Part shown: in pieces, positions 10,599 to 64,000 of the stretch
Numbering within the stretch: position 1 is the stretch's first letter
How the letters are laid out: each line of letters opens with the position of its first letter
From: Candidatus Iainarchaeum sp.
GTDB lineage: Archaea > Iainarchaeota > Iainarchaeia > Iainarchaeales > JACQJH01
DNA length: 64,000 bases
Assembly (NCBI GenBank): GCA_016205145.1
Contig: JACQJH010000002.1
Location: 489,696-553,695, forward strand
Direction of reading: 5' to 3'
Notes under the pieces: generated by a model
What the model was told of the DNA's origin: nothing
What the model saw: the letters and a program-made list of their open reading frames with translations, nothing else
Database searches by the model: none
Translations under genes and position numbers: made by a program

Positions 10599-11345
10599 TC
10601 ACTCTGATTCTATGCGCGGCGCAAGGAAATAGGTTATGTCGGCCTTGCCGACCTTGTAGTTGACCTGGATGGGCGCGTTTGTTTTGAGGAAAACCTTGAC
10701 TTCGGTGTCAGAGGAAGCGGTTTTGAGCATGTCGGAAAGGTAGTCCAACGGGAACATGCTTTTAGCCTCGTCTTTCACTTTCATTTCGGTTATCGCCTTG
10801 TCGTCCTTCTGGGTTTCGCTGTTCAGTTCGCCCTTGCTTGAATGCGCCCTGACAAAAAACTTTTTGTTCTCGATGCCCAACGAAACGTGCGTTGAAATGA
10901 GCGCGGAATCCTTGAGCGCGTCCTGCAGGACCGAAGCCTTCATTGAAAGTTCCGCGTCGAAGTCTATGCGCGGACTCGGCAATTCGGAAGCGGAAATGTC
11001 TATCAAAGGCATGGAAAATTTTCTCACGGAAGAGCCCTTGAACGTGACGCTCAGATAGTTCTTGTCGTCCTCCAATGCCAGGTGCAGTTCGTCGCCGGCC
11101 TTCGACCTGGACATTATCTGGCCCAGGTAATCGAGGTCCAGGCCGAGCTTGGTTTTGCCGTCCAAATCGAATTTTTTGAAGGAATCCTTTTTGAGCGAGA
11201 AGTCGACCATTGAAATCTGGCTTGGGTCGGTCGCCCTCAATGACAAACCATTGGCGTCGAAGATGAATTCGGCCTCGTCGATCAGGACCGCGATTGAGTC
11301 GATGCATTTCTTGAAATCGTCGGCCTTTTCGAGCACTACGTCCAT
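10599..11345 (-). CDS. pcn: DNA polymerase sliding clamp PCNA (paralog 2)
   Basis: 248 aa. PCNA motifs (LRATDPSQISMVDF, VRKFSMPLIDISASE); only about 30% identical to paralog 1. Confidence 0.8.
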   Translation of the reverse strand: MDVVLEKADDFKKCIDSIAVLIDEAEFIFDANGLSLRATDPSQISMVDFSLKKDSFKKFDLDGKTKLGLDLDYLGQIMSRSKAGDELHLALEDDKNYLSVTFKGSSVRKFSMPLIDISASELPSPRIDFDAELSMKASVLQDALKDSALISTHVSLGIENKKFFVRAHSSKGELNSETQKDDKAITEMKVKDEAKSMFPLDYLSDMLKTASSDTEVKVFLKTNAPIQVNYKVGKADITYFLAPRIESE

Positions 11346-36835: not shown

Positions 36836-37417
36836 TTGATGCGCGGAAAAGGCTTTTTCGCTTTTGTTCTGGTAATTTTCTTCCTGCTCGCCGCAACGGA
36901 GTCGGCGGGCAGGCAATCCTCCTCGTTCCGCTCGTTCTCCGAAGCGCATCGCATTGCAATGGAGCTTGAAAGCCAGAACATGCTCCGGTCGAACGTTGAA
37001 AACAACCTCGATTTTGTCGTGGAAAAAACAATGCGCAGGCAGATTCTCCTCGGAAGCACGGATCCGGCGCAATTGAAGCTTGCGCTGGACGAAAAGGTTT
37101 TTTCCTTTTTCCTGGAAACGCAAAAAAATGCACGGCCGCGAAACCTCGAATTCTCCGGAGCAACGGTTTACGGAAACCGGTATTCTGAAAACGCCGGCGC
37201 GGCGGCGCAGGAAAAACTTTCAATGGAATTCATTGGCCGGAATTCGGTTGCGTTCGTGGAACTGGCCGGCGGGGCATGGATTGCGGAATACCATTTTTCC
37301 GGCGGGCTTTACAGGAACAGCGCAGTGATTGGCCGGATTGTCTCCGAAGACAATGAAACCATGACGGTTTTTTTCCTGCCTGCAGGGTACTCTAAAACAG
37401 TTGTGGTGGTCGGTTGA
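36836..37417 (+). CDS. type IV pilin-like protein (class III signal peptide)
   Basis: The N-terminus MMRGKG-FFAFVLVIFFLLAATE has a basic residue plus Gly followed by a hydrophobic stretch. It is first in a block of four overlapping + strand genes. Confidence 0.45.
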   Translation: MMRGKGFFAFVLVIFFLLAATESAGRQSSSFRSFSEAHRIAMELESQNMLRSNVENNLDFVVEKTMRRQILLGSTDPAQLKLALDEKVFSFFLETQKNARPRNLEFSGATVYGNRYSENAGAAAQEKLSMEFIGRNSVAFVELAGGAWIAEYHFSGGLYRNSAVIGRIVSEDNETMTVFFLPAGYSKTVVVVG

Positions 37418-37755
37418 GCAATGGCCAGGCAAGCGTGGAAGCGATGGCCGCGATTGCGCTGATTCTTTCCGCTGCGGCGTTTTTCCTGTCCGGGCAGGCG
37501 CTTTTGGAGAACGCGGTTTCCGAAGCCGAAAAAAAGCTTGTCGCGAAAGCCGAAGCGCAGTCATGCGCGATTGTGGCGGACGCGGTTTTCAGCAATTCCC
37601 TCGGCTTTTCCGGAAAATACGGATGCGCTCCAACCGCCGGGGGAGTTGAAGGAATGGCTTTCGGAAAAACCGCTTCGGAAAAAACCCTGTCGGAAAAGTC
37701 CGCGGCATCAGGAGATGGGGGCCTTGAAACAATGGCACCGGAACATTATGCCTGA
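37414..37755 (+). CDS. type IV pilin-like protein (class III signal peptide)
   Basis: N-terminus MSNGQASVEAMAAIALILSAAAFF, with the characteristic GQ(A/S)..E motif cleaved by prepilin peptidases. Confidence 0.6.
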   Translation: MSNGQASVEAMAAIALILSAAAFFLSGQALLENAVSEAEKKLVAKAEAQSCAIVADAVFSNSLGFSGKYGCAPTAGGVEGMAFGKTASEKTLSEKSAASGDGGLETMAPEHYA

Positions 37756-38215
37756 ACAAAACCAGGGCGGGGCATTCTTTTCCGCCGACCTGGCGATAGC
37801 GTTCGTGAGCCTTGCGTTCCTGTTTTTCCTGGTTTCCGAAACGCGCATTTCAGGCCTCAACGAAAAAACCGCGGAAAGCGAAAGCGTTTCCATGCAGAAA
37901 ACCGCGTTTTTCCTCGCCGACTCCATGGTGAAAAACCGCGATGAAAACAACGCATTGCTTGGAATGGCTGCATTCAATGCCGGGGCGGGGCGCGTTGAAA
38001 GCAATGCCCTGCCTGAAAGCCTTGAAGGCATGCGGTTTGCGCAGTTGCGCGGAAGCATTTTTGTCGAAAGCGTTTCAATCGCGTATTTTGACGGGAACTC
38101 CGTGGAAATATTCCGTGATGCGCGTGCCGGCGCGAAAAACTGCATTGCGACCGAAAGGCTTGTTCTCAGAGGCATGAAAAAGGCGCTTCTCAGGGCAAGG
38201 GTTTGCGGTGAATGA
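37748..38215 (+). CDS. type IV pilin-like protein (class III signal peptide)
   Basis: Start at the internal Met (MPEQNQGGAFFSADLAIAFVSLAFLFFLV). It overlaps the previous stop in an ATGCCTGA arrangement. Confidence 0.5.
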   Translation: MPEQNQGGAFFSADLAIAFVSLAFLFFLVSETRISGLNEKTAESESVSMQKTAFFLADSMVKNRDENNALLGMAAFNAGAGRVESNALPESLEGMRFAQLRGSIFVESVSIAYFDGNSVEIFRDARAGAKNCIATERLVLRGMKKALLRARVCGE

Positions 38216-38588
38216 ATTGGGGAAAGGATTTTACCTGTCAATGGAGGCCGCAGTGAGCCTCCTGCTGTTTTCGGCTGCGGTCCTGGCACTCCAGCCGCCG
38301 CCCGCCAAAAGCCTCTCTGATTTATACGTGCTGCAGAAGGAAAACGACTTGCTGAAAATCTGGGTTAAAGAGGCAAAATTTGAAATTCAGGAAATGGAAA
38401 AAGATTTCCTGTTTTCCTTTCCCGGCCGCCATGGTTTTGTCTCAATCAACGGGAAAACATTTGAAGCAGGCACGCCTGAGAATGCCCGGGAATGCGGGGA
38501 TTTTGCCGTGTCTCAAGCGTTTTTCCTCGACGAAAATCTCAAAAAAACCGTGTTAAGGGTCGGCGTTTGCGCGGACAACGCCGCCTGA
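38208..38588 (+). CDS. type IV pilin-like protein (class III signal peptide)
   Basis: N-terminus MNELGKG-FYLSMEAAVSLLLFSAAVLAL (KG then a Glu at +5, classic prepilin). Confidence 0.6.
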   Translation: MNELGKGFYLSMEAAVSLLLFSAAVLALQPPPAKSLSDLYVLQKENDLLKIWVKEAKFEIQEMEKDFLFSFPGRHGFVSINGKTFEAGTPENARECGDFAVSQAFFLDENLKKTVLRVGVCADNAA

Positions 38589-38972
38589 CTTTTCAAGCGC
38601 CACAACGGATTTTGGCGGAAGAAAAAAATCAAAGTCTTCCATCCGGCCCGAAAGTTCAGTTGAAAGTGTTTTGGAGAATTCTTCCCCGCTGCCGGACGCC
38701 GCGTTCAGGGAAATTTCGAGCATTCCTGCATTTGAGGATGCGCGCCATTCAGCCGAGTTTTGCGCGGCAATCGTTTTCCTTGACCCGTCCGCCAGGACAG
38801 CGAGTTCCATTGAAGCTGCCGAAAGCCTGTCCGCGAACGACCTTGCCTTGGCGGTTTCAGAAGAAGCCTGGGCAAGCCAGAGCGTTTTGTCCCACGCAAA
38901 GGCAAAAACAGCGAGAAGTGCAAGGCCTGCCGCAAGCAGGAGCAGGAATTCCATGCTCGCCTGCCCCTGCAT
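38553..38972 (-). CDS. type IV pilin-like protein (class III signal peptide)
   Basis: Internal start MQGQASMEFLLLLAAGLALLAVFAFAW. Convergent with the + strand pilin block. Confidence 0.55.
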   Translation of the reverse strand: MQGQASMEFLLLLAAGLALLAVFAFAWDKTLWLAQASSETAKARSFADRLSAASMELAVLADGSRKTIAAQNSAEWRASSNAGMLEISLNAASGSGEEFSKTLSTELSGRMEDFDFFLPPKSVVALEKSGGVVRANADP

Positions 38973-39036
38973 GCCCTGCCCGCGTTTTGCGGGGAGAATG
39001 GCCGTTGTCTCACACGCAGCCACGCCAAGCACCACT

Positions 39037-39228
39037 TCAGATTTCGTCTATTTTCTTGAAAATTTCGCCGGTCTTCTTGTTTATGACCTTTGCGCCCTCG
39101 CTGCCAGTTTCCTGCAATTGCGAGACGAGCAGCAAAACCATTGCGACCACCGCGGCCAAAACTATTATGAGTTCGACGGAAATCTGGCCGTGCTCTTCGG
39201 AAAAAATTTGCGAAAGTGCCCGAAACAT
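39037..39228 (-). CDS. short type IV pilin-like protein (63 aa)
   Basis: ...HGQISVELIIVLAAVVAMVLLLVSQL, a prepilin-type signal with a short mature domain. Confidence 0.5.
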   Translation of the reverse strand: MFRALSQIFSEEHGQISVELIIVLAAVVAMVLLLVSQLQETGSEGAKVINKKTGEIFKKIDEI

Positions 39229-54052: not shown

Positions 54053-55306
54053 TCAAACCCATTGAAGGATTTTCTTCTGGTGTTTCAGGGCGTCGTACAA
54101 AACGCTTTTTTTCCTGTAAGTTTCAATGGGCACGACAAGCTTTGACTTCAGGAAAGCGAATGCCAGGTCAATGCCGGAAAATGCAAGCGGTTTTTTCTGC
54201 AGGGCGTGGCGCACGTTCTCGCGGATTTGCCAGGTTCCAAGAGGAACGTCGTAGCCCTTGCCTATTTCCCTGAAAACAATCGCCGCGCCCTGCCTTTTCT
54301 CCCTGCGCAAATACTCGCAGACAGCAAGCCTCGCCGAATAGTATGCGCCCGTAATGTTGTCGGCATAGTTTTTCCTGCCCGAAAAAAACTCGAAATCGTG
54401 CGCGACGTGGAAATCGGTTGCGTTCGGCGTCCACACCCCGCCCGGCATCCATGTTTCCATCATTTCAAACGACCATTCATTCGGCAGAAGCATCACCCAG
54501 AAATTGTTGTCAAGGTAATTGGAATTGAACAGCCTGATTTCGGAAAGCTGGGGAAGATATTTGACTTTTTCAAGCAGCTGTTTTGAAACCGTGTCGTCCA
54601 CTGCAGTGATCGACCACCTGGTCGGGACGAATTTCCTGTTCTTTTTCACGCCCAGGGTGCCGGCGGACAAAAGCTTGTAAAGGAAATGCACCGGCAGGCC
54701 GTCAGTATAGAGTTCCTGCATTGCGGTCGTTGATTTTGCATCCGTGTCCGAGACAAGGTAGTCGACTTTTGTCGGAATGCTTGGGTTTGATTCGAACGAA
54801 AATTTTTCCATGGCGGCTGAGGGGCCCATCGGCGCGAAAAGGTCGGAAAAGGAAGAGCCGAGTTTCGGCTTGTCCTTGAGTTTGACGTCAAGGTCAACCT
54901 GTTTTTCGGACATGGCGATTTCCTGTATGGCGGCAACGTCATATGTCGGGTTTGACGCGGAGTGCACGGAAACTTTTTTGTTGGAGCGGAACAGCTGCTG
55001 GCGAAAGCCTAGAATTTCGCTTGACGGAAGCCCATACCATTGTTCGGGATTGTCAAGAAACGCGGCGTCTTCGACGAGTTGCGGCGGAGACAATGGTGCG
55101 ATGTCAACCTGCGGATAGTTTTTCCACGCAACGAAAATTGACGGAGGGGAGGAGCCGACAAACTCCTTGGCATCGAATAGCCTCTGCGTTGCCCGCTTTT
55201 TTTCAAAGCGGTCAAGCAATGGGCAGGACGGAAGATTGCACCACAGCCTGCCCTTGCACGGAACGCAGATGCCCGGCGTTGGCACGAATGAAGGCGAAGC
55301 CTGCAT
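54053..55306 (-). CDS. Nre-family (DUF650/DUF651-like) putative DNA repair protein with N-terminal Cys cluster
   Basis: 417 aa from the internal Met (MQASPSF...). N-terminal CVPCKGRLWCNLPSCP looks Zn-binding, about 400 aa, next-but-one to rfcS. The family call rests on architecture and context. The listed ORF extends 233 codons further into the oppositely oriented spermidine-synthase-like gene. Confidence 0.4.
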   Translation of the reverse strand: MQASPSFVPTPGICVPCKGRLWCNLPSCPLLDRFEKKRATQRLFDAKEFVGSSPPSIFVAWKNYPQVDIAPLSPPQLVEDAAFLDNPEQWYGLPSSEILGFRQQLFRSNKKVSVHSASNPTYDVAAIQEIAMSEKQVDLDVKLKDKPKLGSSFSDLFAPMGPSAAMEKFSFESNPSIPTKVDYLVSDTDAKSTTAMQELYTDGLPVHFLYKLLSAGTLGVKKNRKFVPTRWSITAVDDTVSKQLLEKVKYLPQLSEIRLFNSNYLDNNFWVMLLPNEWSFEMMETWMPGGVWTPNATDFHVAHDFEFFSGRKNYADNITGAYYSARLAVCEYLRREKRQGAAIVFREIGKGYDVPLGTWQIRENVRHALQKKPLAFSGIDLAFAFLKSKLVVPIETYRKKSVLYDALKHQKKILQWV

Positions 55307-55421
55307 GAAATAGTGAAGTTTTGAAGGTTTTTTAAGCCGCTCCAAGCAGGTTTCCCATGAAAGAGGATCTATGGCTGGACACACAACAAATTTAATAATC
55401 GAATAACGCATAGAATATTGA

Positions 55422-57449
55422 ATGAGAAAATCTGACGTTTTCGGCTTGTTTTTGATCAGTTTTTTGACGCTTTTTTTTGAACTGGCCATGATCCGGTGGA
55501 TTCCTGGAACCGTTGCCGCAATCGGATATTTCACCAACCTTATTCTGATTTCAAGTTTTCTTGGAATGGGGCTCGGCTGCCTGCTTGCCGGCAGGAAGGA
55601 TTTTTCGCGCTTTTTGCCGGCACTTTTTTTCGCAACGGTGATTGTTGCAGTGCTGATAAAAAAAATCGGGGTTGCCCCGAGCCAAAACCTGTCGGATTTC
55701 ATTTTCGTGGATTTTTCCGGCCAAGCCCTGCCGTTGATTCTTGTCATGCCGCTTGTGTTTTTCGTCAATTTCCTGTTTTTTGTCCCACTGGGACAAATCC
55801 TGGGCAGGTTCTTTGAAAAATTCCAGCCACTGAGGGCATATGCCATAAACATTCTGGGCGCAATAGCGGGCATAGTGGTTTTCACTTTGTTGTCGTTCCT
55901 GTCAGTTCCGCCGGTCGCATGGTTTTCCGTGGGCGCAGCCTGCACTCTCTGGTTCCTCAGGGGCAAAAAAATCCATTTTGTTTCCGGAATCCTGTTTTTT
56001 GCCATAGCGCTGTCGGTAATCGTAATTGTTGCCGAAAATGAGGTCTGGTCGCCTTACCAGAAGCTTGTCGTGACGCCGGAAACCGGAAACAATTATTTTT
56101 CTTTGACCGTTAACAACAATTATTACCTGAGCGCAACCAAATTCGACCAGCAGACGATAAAAAAATATGAGATAAACAAGGCATGGGCCGAAATATACAA
56201 TCTGCCATATGAATTTGCCCAGCCAAAAGATGTCCTAATCCTTGGAAGCGGCGGTGCAAACGACCTGTTTTTTGCGCTGAAAAGCGGGGCCGAACACATT
56301 GATGCAGTTGAAATTGACCAAAAAATAGTCGAAATATCATCCCAAAAAAGAAAGGACGGTGCATATGGCGATTCCAGAGTCAGCATAATCGTGGACGATG
56401 CCAGGACATACCTTAAAAGCACGGACAAAAAATACGACCTCATAGTCTACGGTTTTCTGGACTCGCACAGGCTGTTTTCCACGATGGCGAACGTCCGGCT
56501 TGACAACTTTGTTTATACTCTGGAAGGAATAAACGAGGCCAAAAAGAGGCTTAAGGACGGCGGGGTGATTTCCCTGTCTTTTTTTGCCAACAGGGAATGG
56601 GTGGCGCAGAAGCTCTTCGACCTGTTAAGCGAAAATTTCGGGCAGAAACCTCTTGTTTTCGAGTCAGCCGCCATGCCATCGGAAAAGGTAATGCTTGTAA
56701 CCAACACGTCCGGCGGGCTATTGAAGGAAAACGTCCCGAATTTCAATGAAACTTCAGGGGCATATGCGAAAAACAGCGGAAAATACAAGGTGCCGAGCGA
56801 CAACTGGCCTTACCTGTACCTTGAAAACAATTTCATTCCGCCGGAATACATAATAATCCTCATCATCATATTTGCTGCAAGTGCGGCGGCTGTTTTCTTT
56901 TCAATCAAATCAGGCGCTGATGCAGGCATCCTTGGCAACCTGCAGTTTTTCTTTTTGGGCGCCGCATTCATGCTTTTGGAGACCAAAAGCATCGTGGAAT
57001 TATCCCTGATTTTCGGAACAAACTGGTTTGTGAACGCCGTGGTCATAACATTCATACTAGTCATGATTTTGGCCGCAAACTTGTTCGTAATAAAATTCAA
57101 TCCTAAAAAAATCCGTTACTTTTACGCATTGCTGTTTTTGACCCTGATTTTCAATTTCATTTTTCCGCCAAAAAACATTCCGTTTGACAATCCGGTGATA
57201 AGGCTTATTGCCCCGGCGTTCATTGCCACGTTGCCCATATTTTTTGCAGGACTGGTTTTTTCCTCGCTTTTCAAAAAAACCAAAAATGCAAGCCTTTCTT
57301 TGGGCCTGAATATCCTTGGCGGGGTACTTGGCGGGTTCCTGGAGTACGCCTCGCTCATTTTCGGCATAGGGCACATCATATTATTGGCGGTTATCCTATA
57401 TGTTCTCTCAATGGCGTTCGCTGGATTGCTGGGTTTCGGAAAAGATTAG
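55422..57449 (+). CDS. membrane-bound spermidine synthase-like protein (polytopic TM domains flanking an aminopropyltransferase/SAM-MTase fold)
   Basis: 675 aa. A central Rossmann region (DVLILGSGGANDLFFALKSGAEHIDAVEIDQKIVEIS...YDLIVYGFLDSH) is flanked by about 7 N-terminal and about 6 C-terminal TM helices. Confidence 0.7.
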   Translation: MRKSDVFGLFLISFLTLFFELAMIRWIPGTVAAIGYFTNLILISSFLGMGLGCLLAGRKDFSRFLPALFFATVIVAVLIKKIGVAPSQNLSDFIFVDFSGQALPLILVMPLVFFVNFLFFVPLGQILGRFFEKFQPLRAYAINILGAIAGIVVFTLLSFLSVPPVAWFSVGAACTLWFLRGKKIHFVSGILFFAIALSVIVIVAENEVWSPYQKLVVTPETGNNYFSLTVNNNYYLSATKFDQQTIKKYEINKAWAEIYNLPYEFAQPKDVLILGSGGANDLFFALKSGAEHIDAVEIDQKIVEISSQKRKDGAYGDSRVSIIVDDARTYLKSTDKKYDLIVYGFLDSHRLFSTMANVRLDNFVYTLEGINEAKKRLKDGGVISLSFFANREWVAQKLFDLLSENFGQKPLVFESAAMPSEKVMLVTNTSGGLLKENVPNFNETSGAYAKNSGKYKVPSDNWPYLYLENNFIPPEYIIILIIIFAASAAAVFFSIKSGADAGILGNLQFFFLGAAFMLLETKSIVELSLIFGTNWFVNAVVITFILVMILAANLFVIKFNPKKIRYFYALLFLTLIFNFIFPPKNIPFDNPVIRLIAPAFIATLPIFFAGLVFSSLFKKTKNASLSLGLNILGGVLGGFLEYASLIFGIGHIILLAVILYVLSMAFAGLLGFGKD

Positions 57450-57500: not shown

Positions 57501-59414
57501 ATGGCCGAAAAGCAGATTGAACTTGAGTTCCCCGACGGCGGCAAAAAGAAATTCGCGAAAGGCATTACCGGCGCGGAAATTGCCAAGGGAATAGGCGAAG
57601 GCTTGGCACGCGCGGCGCTTTCCGTGAAAGTTGACAATGAAGTCCTGGATTTGTCAAGGCCGATTGAAAAAAGCGGGAAGTTTGAGGTTCTCACGGAAAA
57701 AAGCCCCGACGGCCTGAGGACAATGTGGCATTCCACTTCGCATGTCATGGCCGAGGCAGTGCTGGAACTGTTTCCCGAAGCCAAGCCGACCATCGGCCCT
57801 TCGATTGACGAGGGATTCTATTATGATTTTGATGTGAAGCATCCTTTTTCGCCCGAAGACCTGGAAAAAATCGAAGGCAGGATGAAGGAGATTGTGAAAA
57901 AAGACGAGCACTTCGAGCGCAGGGAAATCAGCAGGAAGGAAGCCCTTGAAATGTTCAAAAAAAATTCTTACAAGGTTGAATTGATCAAAGAACTGCCGGA
58001 AGGCGAAACCATTTCAGTTTACCAGGACGGCAAGTTTACCGACCTCTGTTCCGGGCCGCACATTCCAAACACCGGGCGCATCAAGGCGGTCAAGCTTTTG
58101 AAATCGTCCGGCGCGTATTGGCGGGGCAGTGAAAAGAACAGGATGCTGCAGAGGATTTACGGCATCAGTTTCCCCGAAGAGAAAAAGCTGAAAGAGTTTG
58201 TGGCGCAAAAGGAAGAGGCCGCGAAAAGAAACCATTTGAAGCTTGGCAGGGAGCTTGACCTTTTTTCGATGCAGGAAGAGGCGCCCGGCTGCGTTTTTTT
58301 CCATCCGAACGGAATGGTAATCTGGAACGAGCTCATGAAATTCTGGCGCGAAGAGCATTTCAAAGCGGGATATGACGAAATAAAGACGCCAGAAATAATG
58401 AAGCAAAAGCTCTGGGAGAAGTCGGGGCACTGGGACCACTACAAGGACAACATGTATTTCACGAAAATCGACGACGAGGATTTTGCCGTAAAGCCCATGA
58501 ACTGCCCCGGCGGAATTCTTGTATTCAGGTCGAAAAGGCACAGTTATCGCGATTTGCCTTTGAGGCTTGCCGAAGTGGGAACAGTGCACAGGCACGAAAA
58601 GTCGGGCGTTTTGAATGGGCTGTTCCGTGTGAGAAGGTTCACTCAGGATGACGCGCACCTCTACTGCACCGAGGAGCAGATAATGCAGGAAGTCAATGGC
58701 ATCATCGGCCTCATCGACAAGATGTATTCCGTTTTCGGTTTCTCTTACCGCGTCGAATTGTCGACGAGGCCTGAGAAGGCGATGGGTTCGAAGGAGGCAT
58801 GGGACCACGCCGAAGGCGAACTCAAAAAGGCGCTGAACGAGGCGGGCGTGGAATTCAAAATCAATGAAGGCGACGGCGCGTTCTACGGCCCGAAAATAGA
58901 CTTCCACATCCGCGATTCTTTGGGGAGAACATGGCAGTGCGCGACAATCCAGCTCGACTACCAGATGCCCGAAAAGTTCGAACTTTATTATATTGGAAAG
59001 GACGACAAGGAGCACAGGCCGATCATGCTGCACAGGGTTATCTTCGGCTCTGTTGAAAGGTTCATCGGCATACTCATAGAGCATTTCGGCGGAAATTTTC
59101 CGTTATGGCTTTCCCCGGTGCAGGTCAAAGTGCTTCCTGTGAGCGACAAGTTCAACGATTATGCGAAAAAAGTGCATGGACAATTGAGGCAAAATTTTAT
59201 CCGCAGCGAACTCGACGACAGGCAGGAAACCGTTTCCTACAAGGTCAGGGACGCGGAACTGAGGAAAATTCCTTTCACGCTCACTGTGGGGCAGAGGGAA
59301 GAGGAATCAGAAACTGTTGCCGTAAGGGACAAAAGCGGAAAGGTTTCCGTGCAAAAACTCGATACATTCACTGCCGGGCTTGCGGAAAAAACCGGTAAAA
59401 GGGAAAATGCCTGA
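57501..59414 (+). CDS. thrS: threonine--tRNA ligase, bacterial/eukaryotic-type (TGS plus N2 editing domain)
   Basis: 637 aa. N-terminal TGS, editing-domain HxxxH (HSTSHVMAEAV), class II motifs (FRVRRFTQDDAHLY, GPKIDFH..., HRVIFGSVERFIGILIEHFGG) and an anticodon-binding domain. Confidence 0.9.
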   Translation: MAEKQIELEFPDGGKKKFAKGITGAEIAKGIGEGLARAALSVKVDNEVLDLSRPIEKSGKFEVLTEKSPDGLRTMWHSTSHVMAEAVLELFPEAKPTIGPSIDEGFYYDFDVKHPFSPEDLEKIEGRMKEIVKKDEHFERREISRKEALEMFKKNSYKVELIKELPEGETISVYQDGKFTDLCSGPHIPNTGRIKAVKLLKSSGAYWRGSEKNRMLQRIYGISFPEEKKLKEFVAQKEEAAKRNHLKLGRELDLFSMQEEAPGCVFFHPNGMVIWNELMKFWREEHFKAGYDEIKTPEIMKQKLWEKSGHWDHYKDNMYFTKIDDEDFAVKPMNCPGGILVFRSKRHSYRDLPLRLAEVGTVHRHEKSGVLNGLFRVRRFTQDDAHLYCTEEQIMQEVNGIIGLIDKMYSVFGFSYRVELSTRPEKAMGSKEAWDHAEGELKKALNEAGVEFKINEGDGAFYGPKIDFHIRDSLGRTWQCATIQLDYQMPEKFELYYIGKDDKEHRPIMLHRVIFGSVERFIGILIEHFGGNFPLWLSPVQVKVLPVSDKFNDYAKKVHGQLRQNFIRSELDDRQETVSYKVRDAELRKIPFTLTVGQREEESETVAVRDKSGKVSVQKLDTFTAGLAEKTGKRENA

Positions 59415-59442: not shown

Positions 59443-59853
59443 TCAGGAAACCACTTGGACTGTCACAGGATCATAACCTGTGGTTGCCTTGACCTTTGCC
59501 GCTGTGCCGGAAACAATGTCGGAGCGGATGTCGCTTGGCAGGCCAGCCGGGCTGATGTAGGCTGTTATCGTGATGCGTTTCCCGGAAGCGGGCGGGGCGT
59601 TCGCATGTTCTTGGAAGTCAAGCTTTTCAAGCAGGAAAACCGTGTCGGCTTTCTGCAGCCTTGCGAGAATGTCGGTTTTCGCTGTCAGCAAAGCCTTTGT
59701 CGAATCGTTGATTGCCAGAAAATAGCTTAAAGCGACAAGCGAGAGGCCGATGACGACAACCGCTATAAGCAATGCCTCAAAGCTAATCTGTCCTTTTTTG
59801 TTCAAGAGAGCACCTTCAGATCGGCACGTTAAGCGAAACCCCGCCGGAGTCAT
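59443..59853 (-). CDS. type IV pilin-like protein (class III signal peptide)
   Basis: ...NKKGQISFEALLIAVVVIGLSLVALSYFL. The start is probably an internal TTG just before NKKGQ (about 59808). Confidence 0.55.
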   Translation of the reverse strand: MTPAGFRLTCRSEGALLNKKGQISFEALLIAVVVIGLSLVALSYFLAINDSTKALLTAKTDILARLQKADTVFLLEKLDFQEHANAPPASGKRITITAYISPAGLPSDIRSDIVSGTAAKVKATTGYDPVTVQVVS

Positions 59854-60322
59854 TCTGGATTGCTATGCGCAGGCTTGCGGGACCGGTTATGGGTGCGGAA
59901 ATGTTGCCGCAGGAATTGATATTTTTTATGAACGTTGCCTCGCCCACGCACTTGTTGATGTTGCCCGTGCCGTCATTCTGGCATGCCGGCGGCTCTTTTC
60001 CCGGGCCGAGCTTTGCGCTGAGGCTTGCCTTAAACGTGATTTTTGACGGACTGCATTCTATCGTTGCTTCTGCCGGAATGAAGACGTTGATCGTTTCCTT
60101 CGCCTCGCCAGAGGAAGTGAGGATGGCATTTGTGGCCGAAGCGATTTTGTCCGCGGCAAGCCTCGCCTGCCCGACCCTTGCAACGTCTTTCGCGGATTCA
60201 GCCGCAATAGTGATGTTCGGCTGGACGTAGCCCACGATGTAGACAAGCGAAATGAGCACAATCATTATGAATTCGATTGACGCCTGGCCCTTCCTGTTTT
60301 TCAGAAACCCAAAATTTTCCAC
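59816..60322 (-). CDS. type IV pilin-like protein (class III signal peptide)
   Basis: MENFGFLKNRKGQASIEFIMIVLISLVYIVGY..., followed by a Cys-containing mature domain. Confidence 0.6.
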   Translation of the reverse strand: MENFGFLKNRKGQASIEFIMIVLISLVYIVGYVQPNITIAAESAKDVARVGQARLAADKIASATNAILTSSGEAKETINVFIPAEATIECSPSKITFKASLSAKLGPGKEPPACQNDGTGNINKCVGEATFIKNINSCGNISAPITGPASLRIAIQNDSGGVSLNVPI

Positions 60323-61422
60323 AGCAAATCACCCGCAATGCCAAGCAAGACGAACGCAATCAGGACCGAGGGCGCAAAGGCCGCGCTCTTCTTGACCAGG
60401 ATTTTTTCCGGAATGCGTTTTTCCATGCATAATTTTTTCAGCTCCGAAAGCTCTTCTTCAGTCAGGCCGCGCGCCTTGATGCTCGACGCAATCTCCCTTC
60501 CCTGGGGCTTTAGCTCGGACAGAAGGGATTCTAATTTATTGGCTTTTAAGTGGTTAATAATTGTTTTTATTGAAAGCGGCTCCTTTTCCGCCACATTGCC
60601 GTCGGAAAGCAGGAAAAAGCTTTTCGCGGGAATGTCGCCTTCCGCCAGCTCGCTGACGGGCTTCTCCTCAACCAAAAACCGCTTTGAAACCGCGAAAAGC
60701 TTTAAGAAAATGTAAACAAGCGAAATTGCCGCGGTTGAAGCCAGAAAGCCGGAAAGCGCCGGCAAAAGGCTCTGCCACAATGCAAACGCAAACAATCCCG
60801 CCGACACTGCCGGTTTTGCCTTGGCCGGCAGGAAAGCCGCAATGAAAAGCAGCGGCAGCACCAGAATCTGCGGCAAACCGAACAAAACCAGGACCGCGTT
60901 CAAGCCCAGGGCAAGGGCAATGATTTTTGCAGTCGAAACAACCGTGCCCCTGACGCTTTCAAAGATTTCCCTGCGCGCAACCGCGTCCGATTGCAGGCCG
61001 CGCACGGCAATCATCGCGCCGAAAGGCATGACCGAAAAAACCGAGAAAATGAAAAGCGTGAGCGGAAAAATTGGAAGGGGAATCGCCTGCAGCAGCGGAA
61101 TTCCAAGCAATGCGCCGGCAACCGCGGGATTGAACGGGTTCGCGAAGGCAAGCGCCGTGAACAGTTTCACGTCCCCGCCGGCCCAGACGCCGAGCTTCCA
61201 CAGAAGCCACGAAACGCAAAAAGTCGCAATTCCCAAAGCAATCGAAAACCCCAGAATTGACCAGTCGGATTTCACAAACGATTCGGTTGTTTTGGATGCC
61301 AGCGCAAAAGCAATCAGCGAATACGTCAATTTGTTCGGGATTAGCCTTTCTCTCAAATCAATGATTGACGCAACGGCAAGGACTGCAAGCGAAACAAGGT
61401 AGTTTGCCAGAACAAAAAGCAT
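60301..61422 (-). CDS. prepilin/preflagellin peptidase (A24 family) with C-terminal extension
   Basis: Start at MLFVLANYLV. The two catalytic Asp motifs are present (IIDLRERLIPNKL and WAGGDVKLFTALAF); about 8 TM helices, then a soluble C-terminal domain. Confidence 0.75.
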   Translation of the reverse strand: MLFVLANYLVSLAVLAVASIIDLRERLIPNKLTYSLIAFALASKTTESFVKSDWSILGFSIALGIATFCVSWLLWKLGVWAGGDVKLFTALAFANPFNPAVAGALLGIPLLQAIPLPIFPLTLFIFSVFSVMPFGAMIAVRGLQSDAVARREIFESVRGTVVSTAKIIALALGLNAVLVLFGLPQILVLPLLFIAAFLPAKAKPAVSAGLFAFALWQSLLPALSGFLASTAAISLVYIFLKLFAVSKRFLVEEKPVSELAEGDIPAKSFFLLSDGNVAEKEPLSIKTIINHLKANKLESLLSELKPQGREIASSIKARGLTEEELSELKKLCMEKRIPEKILVKKSAAFAPSVLIAFVLLGIAGDLLWKILGF

Positions 61423-61524
61423 TGCATTCCACACCTGCACAAAAAAAACTTGCCTATTAAAAGAAAGGGCGGCGCAAATAAAAGGCTTATGAAGGCCACG
61501 CAATCATTTTGTGAATAGGCAGGC

Positions 61525-61716
61525 TTACTGCATAAGCGAAGTGATGGTTTCGCTGCGGTAGGTCAGGATGTCAGCCTGCGCCTTGGTTGCAACGGAAACG
61601 ATTGCATTGATTAGAAGCGCGGCTGCAATCGCAAGGAGGATTCCGAACAATGCCGTCAGAAGGTATTCAAAAGCCGTTTGGCCGCGCTCATCCACTGGCA
61701 ACACCTTAAACTCCAT
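61525..61716 (-). CDS. short type IV pilin (63 aa)
   Basis: MEFKVLPVDERGQTAFEYLLTALFGILLAIAAALLINAIV..., a class III signal peptide. Confidence 0.55.
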   Translation of the reverse strand: MEFKVLPVDERGQTAFEYLLTALFGILLAIAAALLINAIVSVATKAQADILTYRSETITSLMQ

Positions 61717-61870
61717 TGACCGTGTTGAGGAAATTCGTCAGCTGCTGGTTTCCCTGCTGCTTGGTCGGCCCGATGAAGTTCGTGATAACCACGATTACAA
61801 CCGCGGCAATCAAAACGGCTGCCGCAATCAGCAGAAGGTATTCCAGTGCGCCTTGACCTTTCGAATCCAT
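61706..61870 (-). CDS. ultra-short Flp-like type IV pilin (tandem copy 1)
   Basis: MDSKGQGALEYLLLIAAAVLIAAVVIVVI... The N-terminus is almost identical to the next two genes, and the C-terminus is variable. Confidence 0.6.
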   Translation of the reverse strand: MDSKGQGALEYLLLIAAAVLIAAVVIVVITNFIGPTKQQGNQQLTNFLNTVNGV

Positions 61871-61884
61871 TGGTTTCACCAAAA

Positions 61885-62061
61885 TCATGCGACGTTCCCC
61901 AAATTTGCAAGACTTGAGTTGTACGTGCCCTGGGAATTTTCAATGCTGCCTTTGCCGCTGCTTGCAGAGCTTGTCAGCAGTATTATGACGACTGCCGCAA
62001 TCAGCACAGCCGCACCAATCAGCAGCAGATACTCCAATGCCCCTTGACCTTTCGAATCCAT
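61885..62061 (-). CDS. ultra-short Flp-like type IV pilin (tandem copy 2)
   Basis: Internal start MDSKGQGALEYLLLIGAAVLIAAVVIILL..., about 58 aa. Confidence 0.6.
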   Translation of the reverse strand: MDSKGQGALEYLLLIGAAVLIAAVVIILLTSSASSGKGSIENSQGTYNSSLANLGNVA

Positions 62062-62123
62062 TTCAACACCACCGGTTTTTTTAAGAATAAAAAAAAGGCC
62101 AGCGAGTGGCCTTCTCTGCCAGT

Positions 62124-62306
62124 TCATGGAGTGAGCTGGTTTTGCAGGTTTGACTGCGCTTCCGTAGCGGTATTAGCCGATGTCTCAGCTGTGGTTTTGC
62201 CCGACTGCCCTATGTTCGTCAGCAGCACTATTACGACTGCCGCAATCAGCACAGCCGCACCAATCAGCAGCAGATACTCCAAAGCGCCCTGTCCATTAGA
62301 ATCCAT
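62124..62306 (-). CDS. ultra-short Flp-like type IV pilin (tandem copy 3)
   Basis: Internal start MDSNGQGALEYLLLIGAAVLIAAVVIVLL..., about 60 aa. Confidence 0.6.
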   Translation of the reverse strand: MDSNGQGALEYLLLIGAAVLIAAVVIVLLTNIGQSGKTTAETSANTATEAQSNLQNQLTP

Positions 62307-62322
62307 TTTTTCAACCTCCAAT

Positions 62323-62487
62323 TTAACCGTTTAAAACCTGTTGCTCCCTGTTGGCGAGTTCGTTCTGAACCGCTTTTGGCACAGATTTTAAGTATAAAGC
62401 AACGACCAAGGCTACGACAATGGCTGCGGCGATCATAAGCAGCACTTCGATTGAGGCCTGCCCGAGTTCCTCCGAAAAAAGGCTCAT
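62323..62487 (-). CDS. short type IV pilin-like protein
   Basis: Internal start MSLFSEELGQASIEVLLMIAAAIVVALVVALYL... Confidence 0.5.
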   Translation of the reverse strand: MSLFSEELGQASIEVLLMIAAAIVVALVVALYLKSVPKAVQNELANREQQVLNG

Positions 62488-63416
62488 ATCACGCCACCAA
62501 ACAGTCCAACCGACAGGATTTTTGCCGCAAAATAACAAACAAACGCAAGTAATAGAAGGATTGGGATGTATATAATACTTTTGCTCATTTTTCCGTCGCG
62601 CATAAGCGAAAGCATGAATCCGACGGCAAGAATTTCAACTGCGATATACGCCTGCATGAGCAGCACTATGAGGTCCTTAACTGCGACTGCCTGCGCCCTT
62701 GCCGCGAGGCCGATGTCAAGGCCCTGTGAGGCCGAAACCACAAGGAACGAAATGATTGTCGAAACGATGCCGAAAATGAGCGGCGCCACAATCGCGCCGG
62801 CGGCAACCATGAACATGACCTGCATCGTGGTTTTCGCCTTGCGCTCCTGCCCTATGCGGTAAATTTCGCGGATGTCGTCGGAAATCTCCTCAAGAACGTC
62901 GGCAAGGCCCGCGCCTGCCTTGATCGAATCGATTATGACGATGATTGACCTGCTTACAAGCCTTGAATCGATGTTTTCGGAAAAGCTTTTCAGGGAATTC
63001 TCAAGGTTTTCGCCTTCCTCAAGCTTCCTCAAAACATTGTTCATCTCCTTTGCCAAAGGCCCGTATTCGGCGTTCGCAATCTCCCGCAAAGCATATTCGT
63101 ATGTGCCGCCCGCGTTAAGCGTGTCAGCCATCTGTTTCAGGGCTTCCGGCAGTGCCTTTTCAATGGCGTCAATGCGCTGCATTGCCTTCAGGTAAGGATA
63201 ACCCAAAAACAGGTCCAATGCGACAATTGGAATGACCGCGACAAAAATCCTGAGCTCGTCGAACAAACCGGCAACGCTGAGGAAAAAGAACGTGAGAACC
63301 GCGAAGATGATTGCGAGCGCCACGGCCATGGCGATGAAAACCCCCGCGTCCACTTTCAGGCCGGCCTGCTTCAAATAGCCCTGGTACTTTTCAACTAGTG
63401 TCTGCTCCTGTTCCAT
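62484..63416 (-). CDS. type II secretion system F-domain membrane protein (TadC/FlaJ-like pilus platform)
   Basis: 310 aa. T2SS-F domain architecture: TM helices, a cytoplasmic helical domain (...LKQMADTLNAGGTYEYALREIA...) and C-terminal TM helices. Confidence 0.7.
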   Translation of the reverse strand: MEQEQTLVEKYQGYLKQAGLKVDAGVFIAMAVALAIIFAVLTFFFLSVAGLFDELRIFVAVIPIVALDLFLGYPYLKAMQRIDAIEKALPEALKQMADTLNAGGTYEYALREIANAEYGPLAKEMNNVLRKLEEGENLENSLKSFSENIDSRLVSRSIIVIIDSIKAGAGLADVLEEISDDIREIYRIGQERKAKTTMQVMFMVAAGAIVAPLIFGIVSTIISFLVVSASQGLDIGLAARAQAVAVKDLIVLLMQAYIAVEILAVGFMLSLMRDGKMSKSIIYIPILLLLAFVCYFAAKILSVGLFGGVI

Positions 63417-63419
63417 ATT

Positions 63420-64000
63420 TCAAGACCTCGGCTGGCTGATTGCAATGTACGCTATGAGAGTTGCAAGCACTATCGGCATTATGACAAGATAAATGACCGC
63501 GATGTTCTCCGGCGCGAGCGGCAGAACCGAGAAAATGCTGCTGCCGCTGCCGATCTGCAAAGGCGTGTTCCTGACTCCGCCGAGAATTGCGATGAAAACC
63601 GGCAGGACAATGGCGATGAAAATGAATATGACCCCGAAAAAGTTGAGCGCTTCCGCAAAGGCCTGGATTCTCGCCCTCAATTCGAACGAAACGTCTTCCG
63701 CGATTGTTTCCATGACATCGGAAAGGTTGCCCCCGGTCTTCAGCGCCCTGATTATGTGCAGCAGGGCACTCCTCAACGCAACGGACTGCGTGCGCAAGGC
63801 GAGGTTCCGCAACGCATCCTTGGTGTCGGTGCCCTCCTCTATCTGCGTGACAACCCACGAGAATTCCTCGGACAAAGCGCCGTAACCTGCGGTTGCAATC
63901 GCCTGGATTGTGCGGTAAAGGCTTATCCCGGCTTTAAGCTCGGTCGCCATGTGCCTCAAAGCGAAAGGCATTTCCCTTGTCACCGCCTCGCCGCGCATCT
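63420..64000 (-). CDS. second T2SS-F domain membrane protein (TadB-like), 5' end beyond window
   Basis: ORF open to the window edge. Contains ...LRHMATELKAGISLYRTIQAIA...LRSALLHIIRALKTGGNLSDVMETIAE..., typical of T2SS-F. Confidence 0.6.
   Translation of the reverse strand, partial: MRGEAVTREMPFALRHMATELKAGISLYRTIQAIATAGYGALSEEFSWVVTQIEEGTDTKDALRNLALRTQSVALRSALLHIIRALKTGGNLSDVMETIAEDVSFELRARIQAFAEALNFFGVIFIFIAIVLPVFIAILGGVRNTPLQIGSGSSIFSVLPLAPENIAVIYLVIMPIVLATLIAYIAISQPRS

Follow-up and report, generated by a model that had tools for sequence, protein, structure and literature searches.

An eleven-gene pilus operon

The 64-kb window analysed here (64,000 nucleotides of contig JACQJH010000002.1 from Candidatus Iainarchaeum sp.; Archaea; Nanobdellati (DPANN); Candidatus Iainarchaeota) ends, at positions 59443-64000, in ten closely spaced minus-strand open reading frames (ORFs), the first of which is cut at the window edge. 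With the ATPase gene that lies beyond that edge the operon has 11 genes in all, in the order ATPase (interrupted by an intein), platform N-half, platform C-half, pilin A, p1, p2, p3, pilin B, peptidase and two larger pilin-like genes. The region is the distal two-thirds of a complete, compact operon that is real and intact. We consider it very probable, judging from gene content and sequence, that this is an intact Iainarchaeota type IV pilus operon of the archaeal Epd-like, or System 1, class, with assembly and a likely adhesion role included. Its GC content equals that of the remainder of the window, and its ORFs were re-found at the coordinates given below (a slash marks the predicted peptidase cut).

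63420..64000, minus: platform protein 1 (TadC-like, N-half type), C-terminal 192 codons of a 388-aa gene; PF00482 (T2SSF) 3.5e-22
62484..63416, minus: platform protein 2 (TadB-like, C-half type), 310 aa; PF00482 2.2e-19
62323..62487, minus: short pilin A, 54 aa (MSLFSEELG/QASIEVLL...), minor-pilin candidate; PF04021 9e-4; its start overlaps the platform protein 2 stop codon (ATGA)
62124..62306, minus: pilin p1, 60-aa precursor, 55 aa mature (MDSNG/QGALEYLLLIGAAVLIAAVVI...); PF04021 30.5 bits; orthologues in the close-strain assemblies L088 and L089
62091..62117, minus: hairpin GGCCA-CTCGC-TGGCC followed by T8 in the p1-p2 spacer, 11 pairs; terminator or attenuator candidate
61885..62061, minus: pilin p2, 58-aa precursor, 53 aa mature; PF04021 32.7 bits; orthologues at 83% identity
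61706..61870, minus: pilin p3, 54-aa precursor, 49 aa mature, tail GPTKQQGNQQLTNFLNTV; PF04021 34.9 bits
61525..61695, minus: short pilin B, 56 aa from GTG 61695 (MDERG/QTAFEYLLTALFGI...); G/Q...EY motif; the longest ORF starts at 61716, and GTG 61695 is the likely true start
60301..61422, minus: prepilin peptidase, 373 aa, with an A24 core, additional transmembrane segments and a C-terminal domain of archaeal type; putative EppA-type long form; PF01478, PF06819
59816..60322, minus: pilin-like protein, 168 aa (…KNRKG/QASIEF…), beta-rich, Cys-containing C-terminal domain; minor-pilin or tip candidate
59443..59805, minus: pilin-like protein, 120 aa from TTG 59805 (MNKKG/QISFEALL…); PF04021 0.032

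For the last gene the longest ORF runs from 59853; the likely true start is TTG 59805, which is preceded by AGGTG and lies just after the upstream stop codon, and homologues of 119-125 aa occupy the equivalent position in the related contigs L003 and L004. Each of p1, p2 and p3 has its own Shine-Dalgarno-like site of the GGAGGT or GGTG type (for p1, GGAGGT 8 nt before the start). An earlier note on this DNA had counted seven consecutive pilin-like genes with class III signal peptides; all seven are present, five of them upstream and two downstream of the peptidase gene, so that the run is not consecutive.

The assembly ATPase and its intein

Looked up by exact sequence, the 310-aa platform protein was found on Logan contig L001 (SRR12113384), which is 100% identical to the window across an overlap of 1748 nt and reaches further upstream. 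On this contig platform protein 1 is completed (L001 8831-9997; the gene runs to window-equivalent 64586), and directly upstream of it stands a T2SSE ATPase of 1036 aa (L001 5708-8818, window-equivalent 64599-67709). The earlier note had presumed an assembly ATPase just past the window edge and had made its reading depend on a secretion ATPase in the flanks; extending the contig places one immediately upstream.

The ATPase contains a LAGLIDADG intein of 460 aa that starts at Cys1, ends in Asn and is followed by Ser+1, and its insertion point is the His box of the ATPase (TGHDG/C…GN/SLGSVHA, the slashes marking the splice junctions). The penultimate His is replaced by Gly. Once spliced, the ATPase would measure 576 aa, with both the Walker A motif (GGTGSGKTT) and the His box intact. 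Compared with solved structures, the spliced protein matched CpaF, the Caulobacter Tad motor, at 264 bits, GspE2 of A. fulgidus at 255 and FlaI at 197, and the NCBIfam ranking put FlaI first and the TadA family second. The distribution of the intein in relatives is sporadic: there is none in the ATPases of L004, L005 and L086, and the ATPase of L003 measures 1560 aa and carries two.

Upstream of the ATPase, L001 encodes an archaeal CPSF (aCPSF) with KH and beta-CASP domains, a proteasome subunit and an FKBP. The downstream boundary of the operon is a convergent threonyl-tRNA synthetase gene (57501-59414, plus strand; bacterial-type, TIGR00418). In L003 and L004 the synthetase gene is instead directly upstream of the ATPase and co-directional with it, from which it follows that the operon or a flanking segment has been inverted or rearranged.

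Platform proteins and prepilin peptidase

The 388-aa and 310-aa platform proteins have one PF00482 domain each. Platform protein 1 aligns to the N-terminal half of UpsF (42-252 of 484), and platform protein 2 aligns to the C-terminal halves of ArlJ (194-463 of 465) and UpsF (264-448 of 484), which bears out the call of two T2SS-F, or TadBC-like, platform genes and adds that they are split into an N-half and a C-half. Two split single-T2SSF platform genes are a hallmark of Epd and Tad systems (Denise et al. 2019; PMC6668835).

The peptidase matched Peptidase_A24 (PF01478) at 2e-14 and 54.2 bits, above the cut-off of 26.5, and Arc_PepC at 1e-13. When it was aligned to FlaK (3S0X), both catalytic Asp residues were conserved, in IIDLRER and (A)GGDVK, as the earlier note had claimed, and GGDVK is invariant across 34 peptidase homologues. 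A crude hydropathy scan found about nine hydrophobic segments. The best NCBIfam matches, EppA and FlaK, both fall far under their cut-offs. Processing by a FlaK/PibD-type enzyme at a G-Q site had been proposed; the G/Q motif is there as a predicted site, and the enzyme is probably of the EppA-type long form, not FlaK/PibD.

Seven pilin-like proteins with Gln at +1

All seven pilin-like proteins share one arrangement, a leader followed by G/Q-x-x-x-E and a hydrophobic stretch, with Gln at +1 in seven of seven. PF04021 (Class_IIIsignal) exceeded its gathering threshold of 23.7 bits in p1, p2 and p3 only, and scored below it in four other pilin-like ORFs, that of pilin A (62323-62487) included. 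A Pfam search returned no match for the pilin B ORF (61525-61716), which was assigned from its G/Q...EY motif. We also searched the whole window in six frames for the pattern [GAS]Q...[ED] plus a hydrophobic stretch and obtained nine matches, six in the pilus locus, two around 39 kb in a second small cluster and one, a false positive, within a membrane protein; with six of nine in a single locus, the clustering is far beyond chance.

The three tandem pilins p1, p2 and p3 have a predicted leader of 5 aa (MDSKG/Q type) and mature lengths of 55, 53 and 49 aa, longer than the 45 aa or so first estimated. Their N-termini are identical at 25-26 of 26 protein residues. Over the first 26 codons, p1 and p2 share 91% of their DNA, including a perfect tract of 50 nt, and identity to p3 is 76-79%; the near-identity described in the earlier note therefore stands for the proteins and for the DNA of p1 and p2, and not for the DNA of p3. 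The tails, described there as completely different, are not all unrelated: those of p1 and p2 share LLT..SGK and about 37% identity when aligned by eye, and that of p3 is distinct and is conserved in other genomes. At -2, p1 has Asn (MDSNG/Q; 62294-62306), a residue kept in its orthologues in L088 and L089; most of the family, p2 and p3 included, carries Lys or Arg at this position, and pilin A here has Leu (EELG/Q).

An AlphaFold2 model of p1, built with 35 family sequences, is a single continuous helix from residue 3 to 58 (predicted local distance difference test score of 85), which in the model leaves no room for a globular domain. Glu5 and Tyr6 of the Flp motif G/XXXXEY are retained in these pilins, here as G/QGALEY. 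By eye, the only N-glycosylation sequon in the pilins is NSS in p2, which reads DSS in the close-strain assemblies L087 and L089 and hence is not conserved.

Conservation across the Iainarchaeota

The peptidase, p1, p2 and the 168-aa protein occur in identical form in an NCBI metagenome-assembled genome of Candidatus Diapherotrites archaeon (locus tags HY394_), where the existing names are 'prepilin peptidase' (for the peptidase), 'class III signal peptide-containing protein' and 'hypothetical protein'. Peptidase homologues at 30-45% identity come almost all from metagenome-assembled genomes of Iainarchaeota or Diapherotrites. A scripted scan of GTDB species genomes gave a comparative set of 66 loci; the window's own species is not among the GTDB representative loci, and the closest representative peptidase is 44% identical. 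An equivalent operon is present in about 60 Iainarchaeota species. The locus thus represents a familiar kind of machine, annotated in part before now and conserved throughout the phylum, and not a new one.

The three long contigs L003-L005 agree with the window in gene order: the ATPase and two T2SSF genes are followed by a small pilin, between one and three QGALEY pilins, another small pilin, the peptidase and finally two pilin-like genes of about 170 and 120 aa. Nearly all 66 loci keep the layout pilin A, one to four QGALEY pilins, pilin B. Pilin A (QxSxE…LK[SN]) comes after the platform genes and has a positional orthologue in 59 Iainarchaeota loci; one to four pilins follow it, their N-terminus being QGALEYLLLIGGAVLIAA; and pilin B (QVSxEYLL[TS]…; 51-53 aa), also found in 59 loci, stands immediately before the peptidase. 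The QGALEY pilins, 83 in number, divide into 38 short forms (46-58 aa mature, no Cys) and 45 long forms (75-130 aa, with 4, 6 or 8 Cys). Short copies number none in 29 of the 66 loci, one in 28, two in three, three in five and four in one. The long, Cys-bearing form occurs in about half of the Iainarchaeota species (L012, L015-L017, L020, L021, L023, L025 and others), with its Cys residues in the C-terminal part, and its sequence suggests that the invariant helix is here topped by a globular head held together by disulfide bonds.

Across the family the first 21 mature residues have a mean pairwise identity of 76% in QGALEY pilins, 58% in pilin B and 44% in pilin A, and the tails one of 22-30%. 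Identical signal peptides are therefore not peculiar to the array in the window. The p3-type tail (PTKN..N.L..FL..I) recurs in the peptidase-proximal copy of nine other species (L003, L007, L008, L010, L013, L014, L018, L030 and L035), which makes p3 an old paralogue and p1 and p2 a younger pair.

Probable assignment to the Epd-like class

The earlier note had called this a Tad-like pilus locus, and its main calls (the domains, the ATPase and the short pilins) were correct; we refine the assignment to an archaeal Epd-like system, not a bacterial Tad one. This assignment rests on architecture, not on phylogeny. The Epd-like clade is described as sister to bacterial Tad, with two contiguous single-T2SSF platform genes derived by fission and with short major pilins (Denise et al. 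2019; PMC6668835), and the nine-transmembrane EppA form of the peptidase is restricted to clade 1 systems (Makarova et al. 2016; PMC4858521). System 1 is found in methanogens, Thermococcales and some DPANN, and its major pilin is without a globular domain (bioRxiv 10.64898/2026.04.22.720090). EppA requires Gln at +1 (PMC4390842), a residue present in all seven predicted substrates.

Several results weigh against the assignment. Subsystem 4A includes DPANN loci with two platform genes (bioRxiv 10.64898/2026.04.22.720090). Between aCPSF and the synthetase gene there is no gene for a FlaH/KaiC-like or MinD/FleN/TadZ-like accessory ATPase, a component that in Epd-like loci is, according to the literature, frequent and not universal. 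The EppA equivalog model matched the peptidase at 52.6 bits against a cut-off of 450, and in the C-terminal domain only. In Pfam searches no pilin matched Flp_Fap at E values up to 0.1, nor was there a TadE match, and a profile of the pilin family searched against the PDB gave chance matches only (E at least 0.9) and found no solved pilin.

Evolution of the tandem pilins

We compared the window with three close-strain assemblies (L087, L088 and L089) at about 93% DNA identity to it and estimated the ratio of non-synonymous to synonymous divergence (dN/dS) by the Nei-Gojobori method. L088 and L089 carry the p1-p2-p3 array, including a conserved p1-p2 spacer. Over their first 30 codons p1, p2 and p3 all had a dN of 0. 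The dN/dS values were as follows.

Platform gene 2 (against L087): 0.05
Pilin A: 0.05
Pilin B: 0.02
p3, whole gene: 0.06
p3 tail: 0.19
p2 tail: 0.58-0.64
p1 tail: 0.15-0.25

Pilin tails, at 0.15-0.64, are about 3- to 30-fold above neighbouring genes and never exceed 1, and the p1 tail has a dS of 1.3-2.2 against 0.2-0.5 in its flanks. A helix with dN of 0, together with ratios below 1, identifies the small ORFs as functional genes with a fixed helix and fast-evolving tails. The earlier description of these genes as diversifying pilins is borne out in part, since the tails evolve fast but reach no dN/dS above 1; positive selection on the tails is not demonstrated by ratios of 0.15-0.64 on small counts.

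Between paralogues, the N-terminal synonymous divergence was 0.37 for p1 and p2; in both comparisons with p3 it had reached saturation (dS about 1.9 or uncomputable). Among the three strains the N-terminal DNA groups by orthologue and not by genome, so concerted evolution is not ongoing. The shared N-terminus is best explained, on this sequence comparison, by family-wide purifying selection and not by current gene conversion: conversion as the source of the identical N-termini is rejected for p3 by its saturated synonymous sites and is not ongoing for p1 and p2 given their clustering by orthologue. Aligning the three genes in search of conversion tracts, as had been proposed, yielded the 50-nt identical tract of p1 and p2; that tract may mark an older p1-p2 conversion event.

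L087 and L089 represent one strain, agreeing at 931 of 933 nt of the platform gene and at 346 of 346 nt across p3 and pilin B. Relative to L089 (1696-2115), L087 (1996-2172) nonetheless lacks about 245 nt, with the 5' flank and first codons of p1 fused to p2 within a 29-nt identical tract. Either recombination or a collapse of the assembly would account for this chimera. The p1-p2 repeat is evidently hard to assemble, as L001 and L002, two Logan assemblies from the window strain, each stop inside it.

Proposed assembly and function

Gene content, motifs, conservation between genomes, the pattern of selection and the ATPase are shown above; we infer the cleavage site, the major and minor pilin roles, the terminator and the cellular role as follows. 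The peptidase would cut after Gly-1, removing a leader of 5-12 residues (5 on p1-p3) and leaving Gln+1. The ATPase and the two-part platform would then extract the mature all-helical subunits of 49-55 aa from the membrane and polymerise them through their invariant hydrophobic helix. Conserved minor or priming roles would fall to pilins A and B and to the two larger proteins, and p1-p3 would be alternative or co-assembling major subunits, with the variable tails forming the filament surface. The most likely role, by analogy, is adhesion to surfaces or partner cells, as attachment is the characterised phenotype of Epd and Tad pili (PMC6668835; bioRxiv 10.64898/2026.04.22.720090).

The hairpin and T8 run between p1 and p2 (62117-62091) formed the strongest terminator-like site in our scan, and both stem and T-run are kept in L088 and L089. 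Such sites are not enriched in the region (6 found against 5.9 expected in shuffles), and this hairpin alone is notable, for its position and conservation. We would speculate that it might attenuate transcription after p1 and so make p1 the most abundant subunit. A sigma-70 promoter scan of the region was set aside, as a bacterial consensus is irrelevant for an archaeon.

The locus offers a minimal single-operon example of an archaeal pilus class regarded as the likely ancestor of bacterial Tad pili. The Iainarchaeota have no cultured members, and surface filaments are candidates for their attachment to surfaces or partner cells. It also provides a template for annotating such loci and for choosing structural targets, namely the invariant helix, the conserved flanking minor-pilin candidates A and B, and the variable putative major pilins, which are either short and Cys-free or long and Cys-rich. 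Some novelty attaches only to the tandem pilin genes, whose variation may be driven by recombination.

Alternative readings

We regard it as hardly credible that the locus is an archaellum operon, or that it is a bacterial Tad locus brought in by contaminated binning or by recent horizontal transfer. The ATPase is closest to CpaF among solved structures, and 2 of 80 related loci lie in bins labelled Chloroflexi or Falkowbacteria, yet the flanks are archaeal (aCPSF with KH, proteasome, Nre, CDC48), the GC content does not set the region apart, the peptidase carries Arc_PepC, no secretin, TadZ, TadD or TadE/F match was found, and the close homologues are all archaeal. For an archaellum there are N-terminal PF01917 matches below threshold only (19.2 against 29.5 bits), FlaC-H and FlaX genes are missing from the operon, and its platform is of the split type. 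A purpose other than adhesion has rather more in its favour, though we still hold it unlikely that the pilus is primarily a device for DNA uptake (competence) or nutrient scavenging. Epd-type pili and eppA are needed for natural transformation in Methanococcus maripaludis, where TctA-like proteins are implicated too (PMC10133366); DNA uptake would suit a small-genome DPANN archaeon, and in the relative L004 the pilus operon has a TctA-family gene (10620-11249) a short way downstream. Against this, no DNA-binding or translocation component was identified in or beside the operon within the window, and attachment remains the phenotype described for Epd and Tad pili; the roles are not mutually exclusive, and we retain adhesion as the preferred reading.

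As to the tandem array, the earlier note had raised the prospect that the three short ORFs are decayed duplicates of one pilin gene, with a single functional copy. They are very short, tandem and alike in their 5' segment, and L087 is without one copy; all, however, are intact in three independent assemblies and under strong purifying selection, with dN of 0 over the first 30 codons, p3 has a whole-gene ratio of 0.06 and orthologues in many species, and each gene has a separate Shine-Dalgarno-like site, so that we think decay very improbable. The array might instead be a variation system in which the conserved 5' segments act as recombination substrates that create, delete and shuffle tails. 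The L087 chimera, set beside the three genes of L089 of the same strain, L088 and the window, points that way, as do the varying copy number (0-4) and gene order in relatives (for example type1-type2-type1 in L086), the high dS of the p1 tail and the ratio of about 0.6 in the p2 tail against 0.02-0.06 in neighbours. The chimera may nevertheless be an assembly collapse, the N-terminal DNA clusters by orthologue with no concerted evolution since the strain split, the ratios never exceed 1 on small counts, and p3 is stable and old; taken together, these points leave the proposal improbable. Were it true, the 5' segments would be built-in recombination sites, and populations would hold three-gene and chimeric two-gene variants with unusually old, divergent tail alleles. 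A DPANN archaeon would then vary the surface of its filaments, perhaps in connection with specificity for hosts or surfaces, or to evade phage or immunity. We prefer to read p1-p3 as functional genes with a helix fixed by selection.

Other features of the window

A second cluster of pilin-like genes spans 36836-39228 on both strands, with no ATPase or platform genes nearby and no Pfam match for any member. Presumably these pilin-like proteins are further substrates of the peptidase encoded in the pilus operon.

39037-39228, minus: …EEHG/QISVELIIVLAAVV…, 49 aa mature
38553-~38966, minus: …MQG/QASMEFLLLLAAGL…
37414-37755, plus: MSNG/QASVEAMAAIALIL…
36836-37417 and 38208-38588, plus: possible members with N-termini of the KG/F… type

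An Nre-family gene (54053-56005, minus; archaeal, DNA repair-associated) overlaps the gene of a 675-aa membrane protein with a spermidine-synthase-like domain (55422-57449, plus) by about 580 nt when the longest ORFs are taken. With an overlap of this size and an Nre Pfam match that begins only at residue 256, the true Nre start probably lies further downstream.

Comparison with known systems

The intein has a counterpart in the KlbA intein of Methanocaldococcus jannaschii MJ0781, which likewise interrupts a secretion ATPase of the same superfamily (VirB11/KlbA family). The two match weakly (2JMZ, E = 5.6e-6), and the intein described here is one of 460 aa with a LAGLIDADG endonuclease domain, a Cys1 start, a ...GN/S end and a His-box site.

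For the tandem pilins, a close parallel is PilA1-6 of Haloferax volcanii (Esquivel et al. 2013, 'Novel archaeal adhesion pilins with a conserved N terminus'), reportedly paralogous major pilins with a near-identical hydrophobic N-terminal domain and divergent C-terminal parts, any one or combination of which is said to build adhesive pili. They reportedly differ from p1-p3 in being larger, in having a globular domain, in being encoded by scattered genes, in being processed by PibD and in belonging to clade 2 type IV pili.

With the bacterial Tad/Flp pili (type IVc; CpaF/PilA of Caulobacter, Flp-1 of Aggregatibacter) the locus has in common a split TadB/TadC-like platform, an ATPase closest to CpaF, pilins of about 50 aa with the G/XXXXEY motif and no globular domain, a peptidase without a methyltransferase domain, and tandem pilin genes next to the peptidase gene. 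Unlike those systems, its operon proteins have no match in Pfam or NCBIfam to a secretin (RcpA/CpaC), TadZ, TadD or TadE/F/G, its pilins do not match Flp_Fap, its peptidase has the archaeal C-terminal domain, and its host is a single-membrane archaeon. In motif and size the pilins do resemble Flp, although they are not demonstrably members of that family.

The Epd pilus of Methanococcus maripaludis (clade 1, Epd-like, System 1) differs in that EpdE and the ATPase and platform genes lie at separate loci, whereas here there is one compact operon, which is without FlaH/MinD-type ATPase, adhesin-domain, S-layer-like and transglutaminase-like peptidase genes. The leader is 5 aa here and 12 in EpdE, the ATPase here carries an intein, and the EppA model scores 52.6 bits. 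Both systems have two single-T2SSF platform genes beside the ATPase, a dedicated long prepilin peptidase with extra transmembrane segments (predicted here), PF04021/DUF361 signal peptides with Gln+1, a major pilin of about 6 kDa without a globular domain (its identity here being predicted) and, in an operon of about 11 genes, several minor pilins, for which pilins A and B and the two larger proteins are the candidates here.

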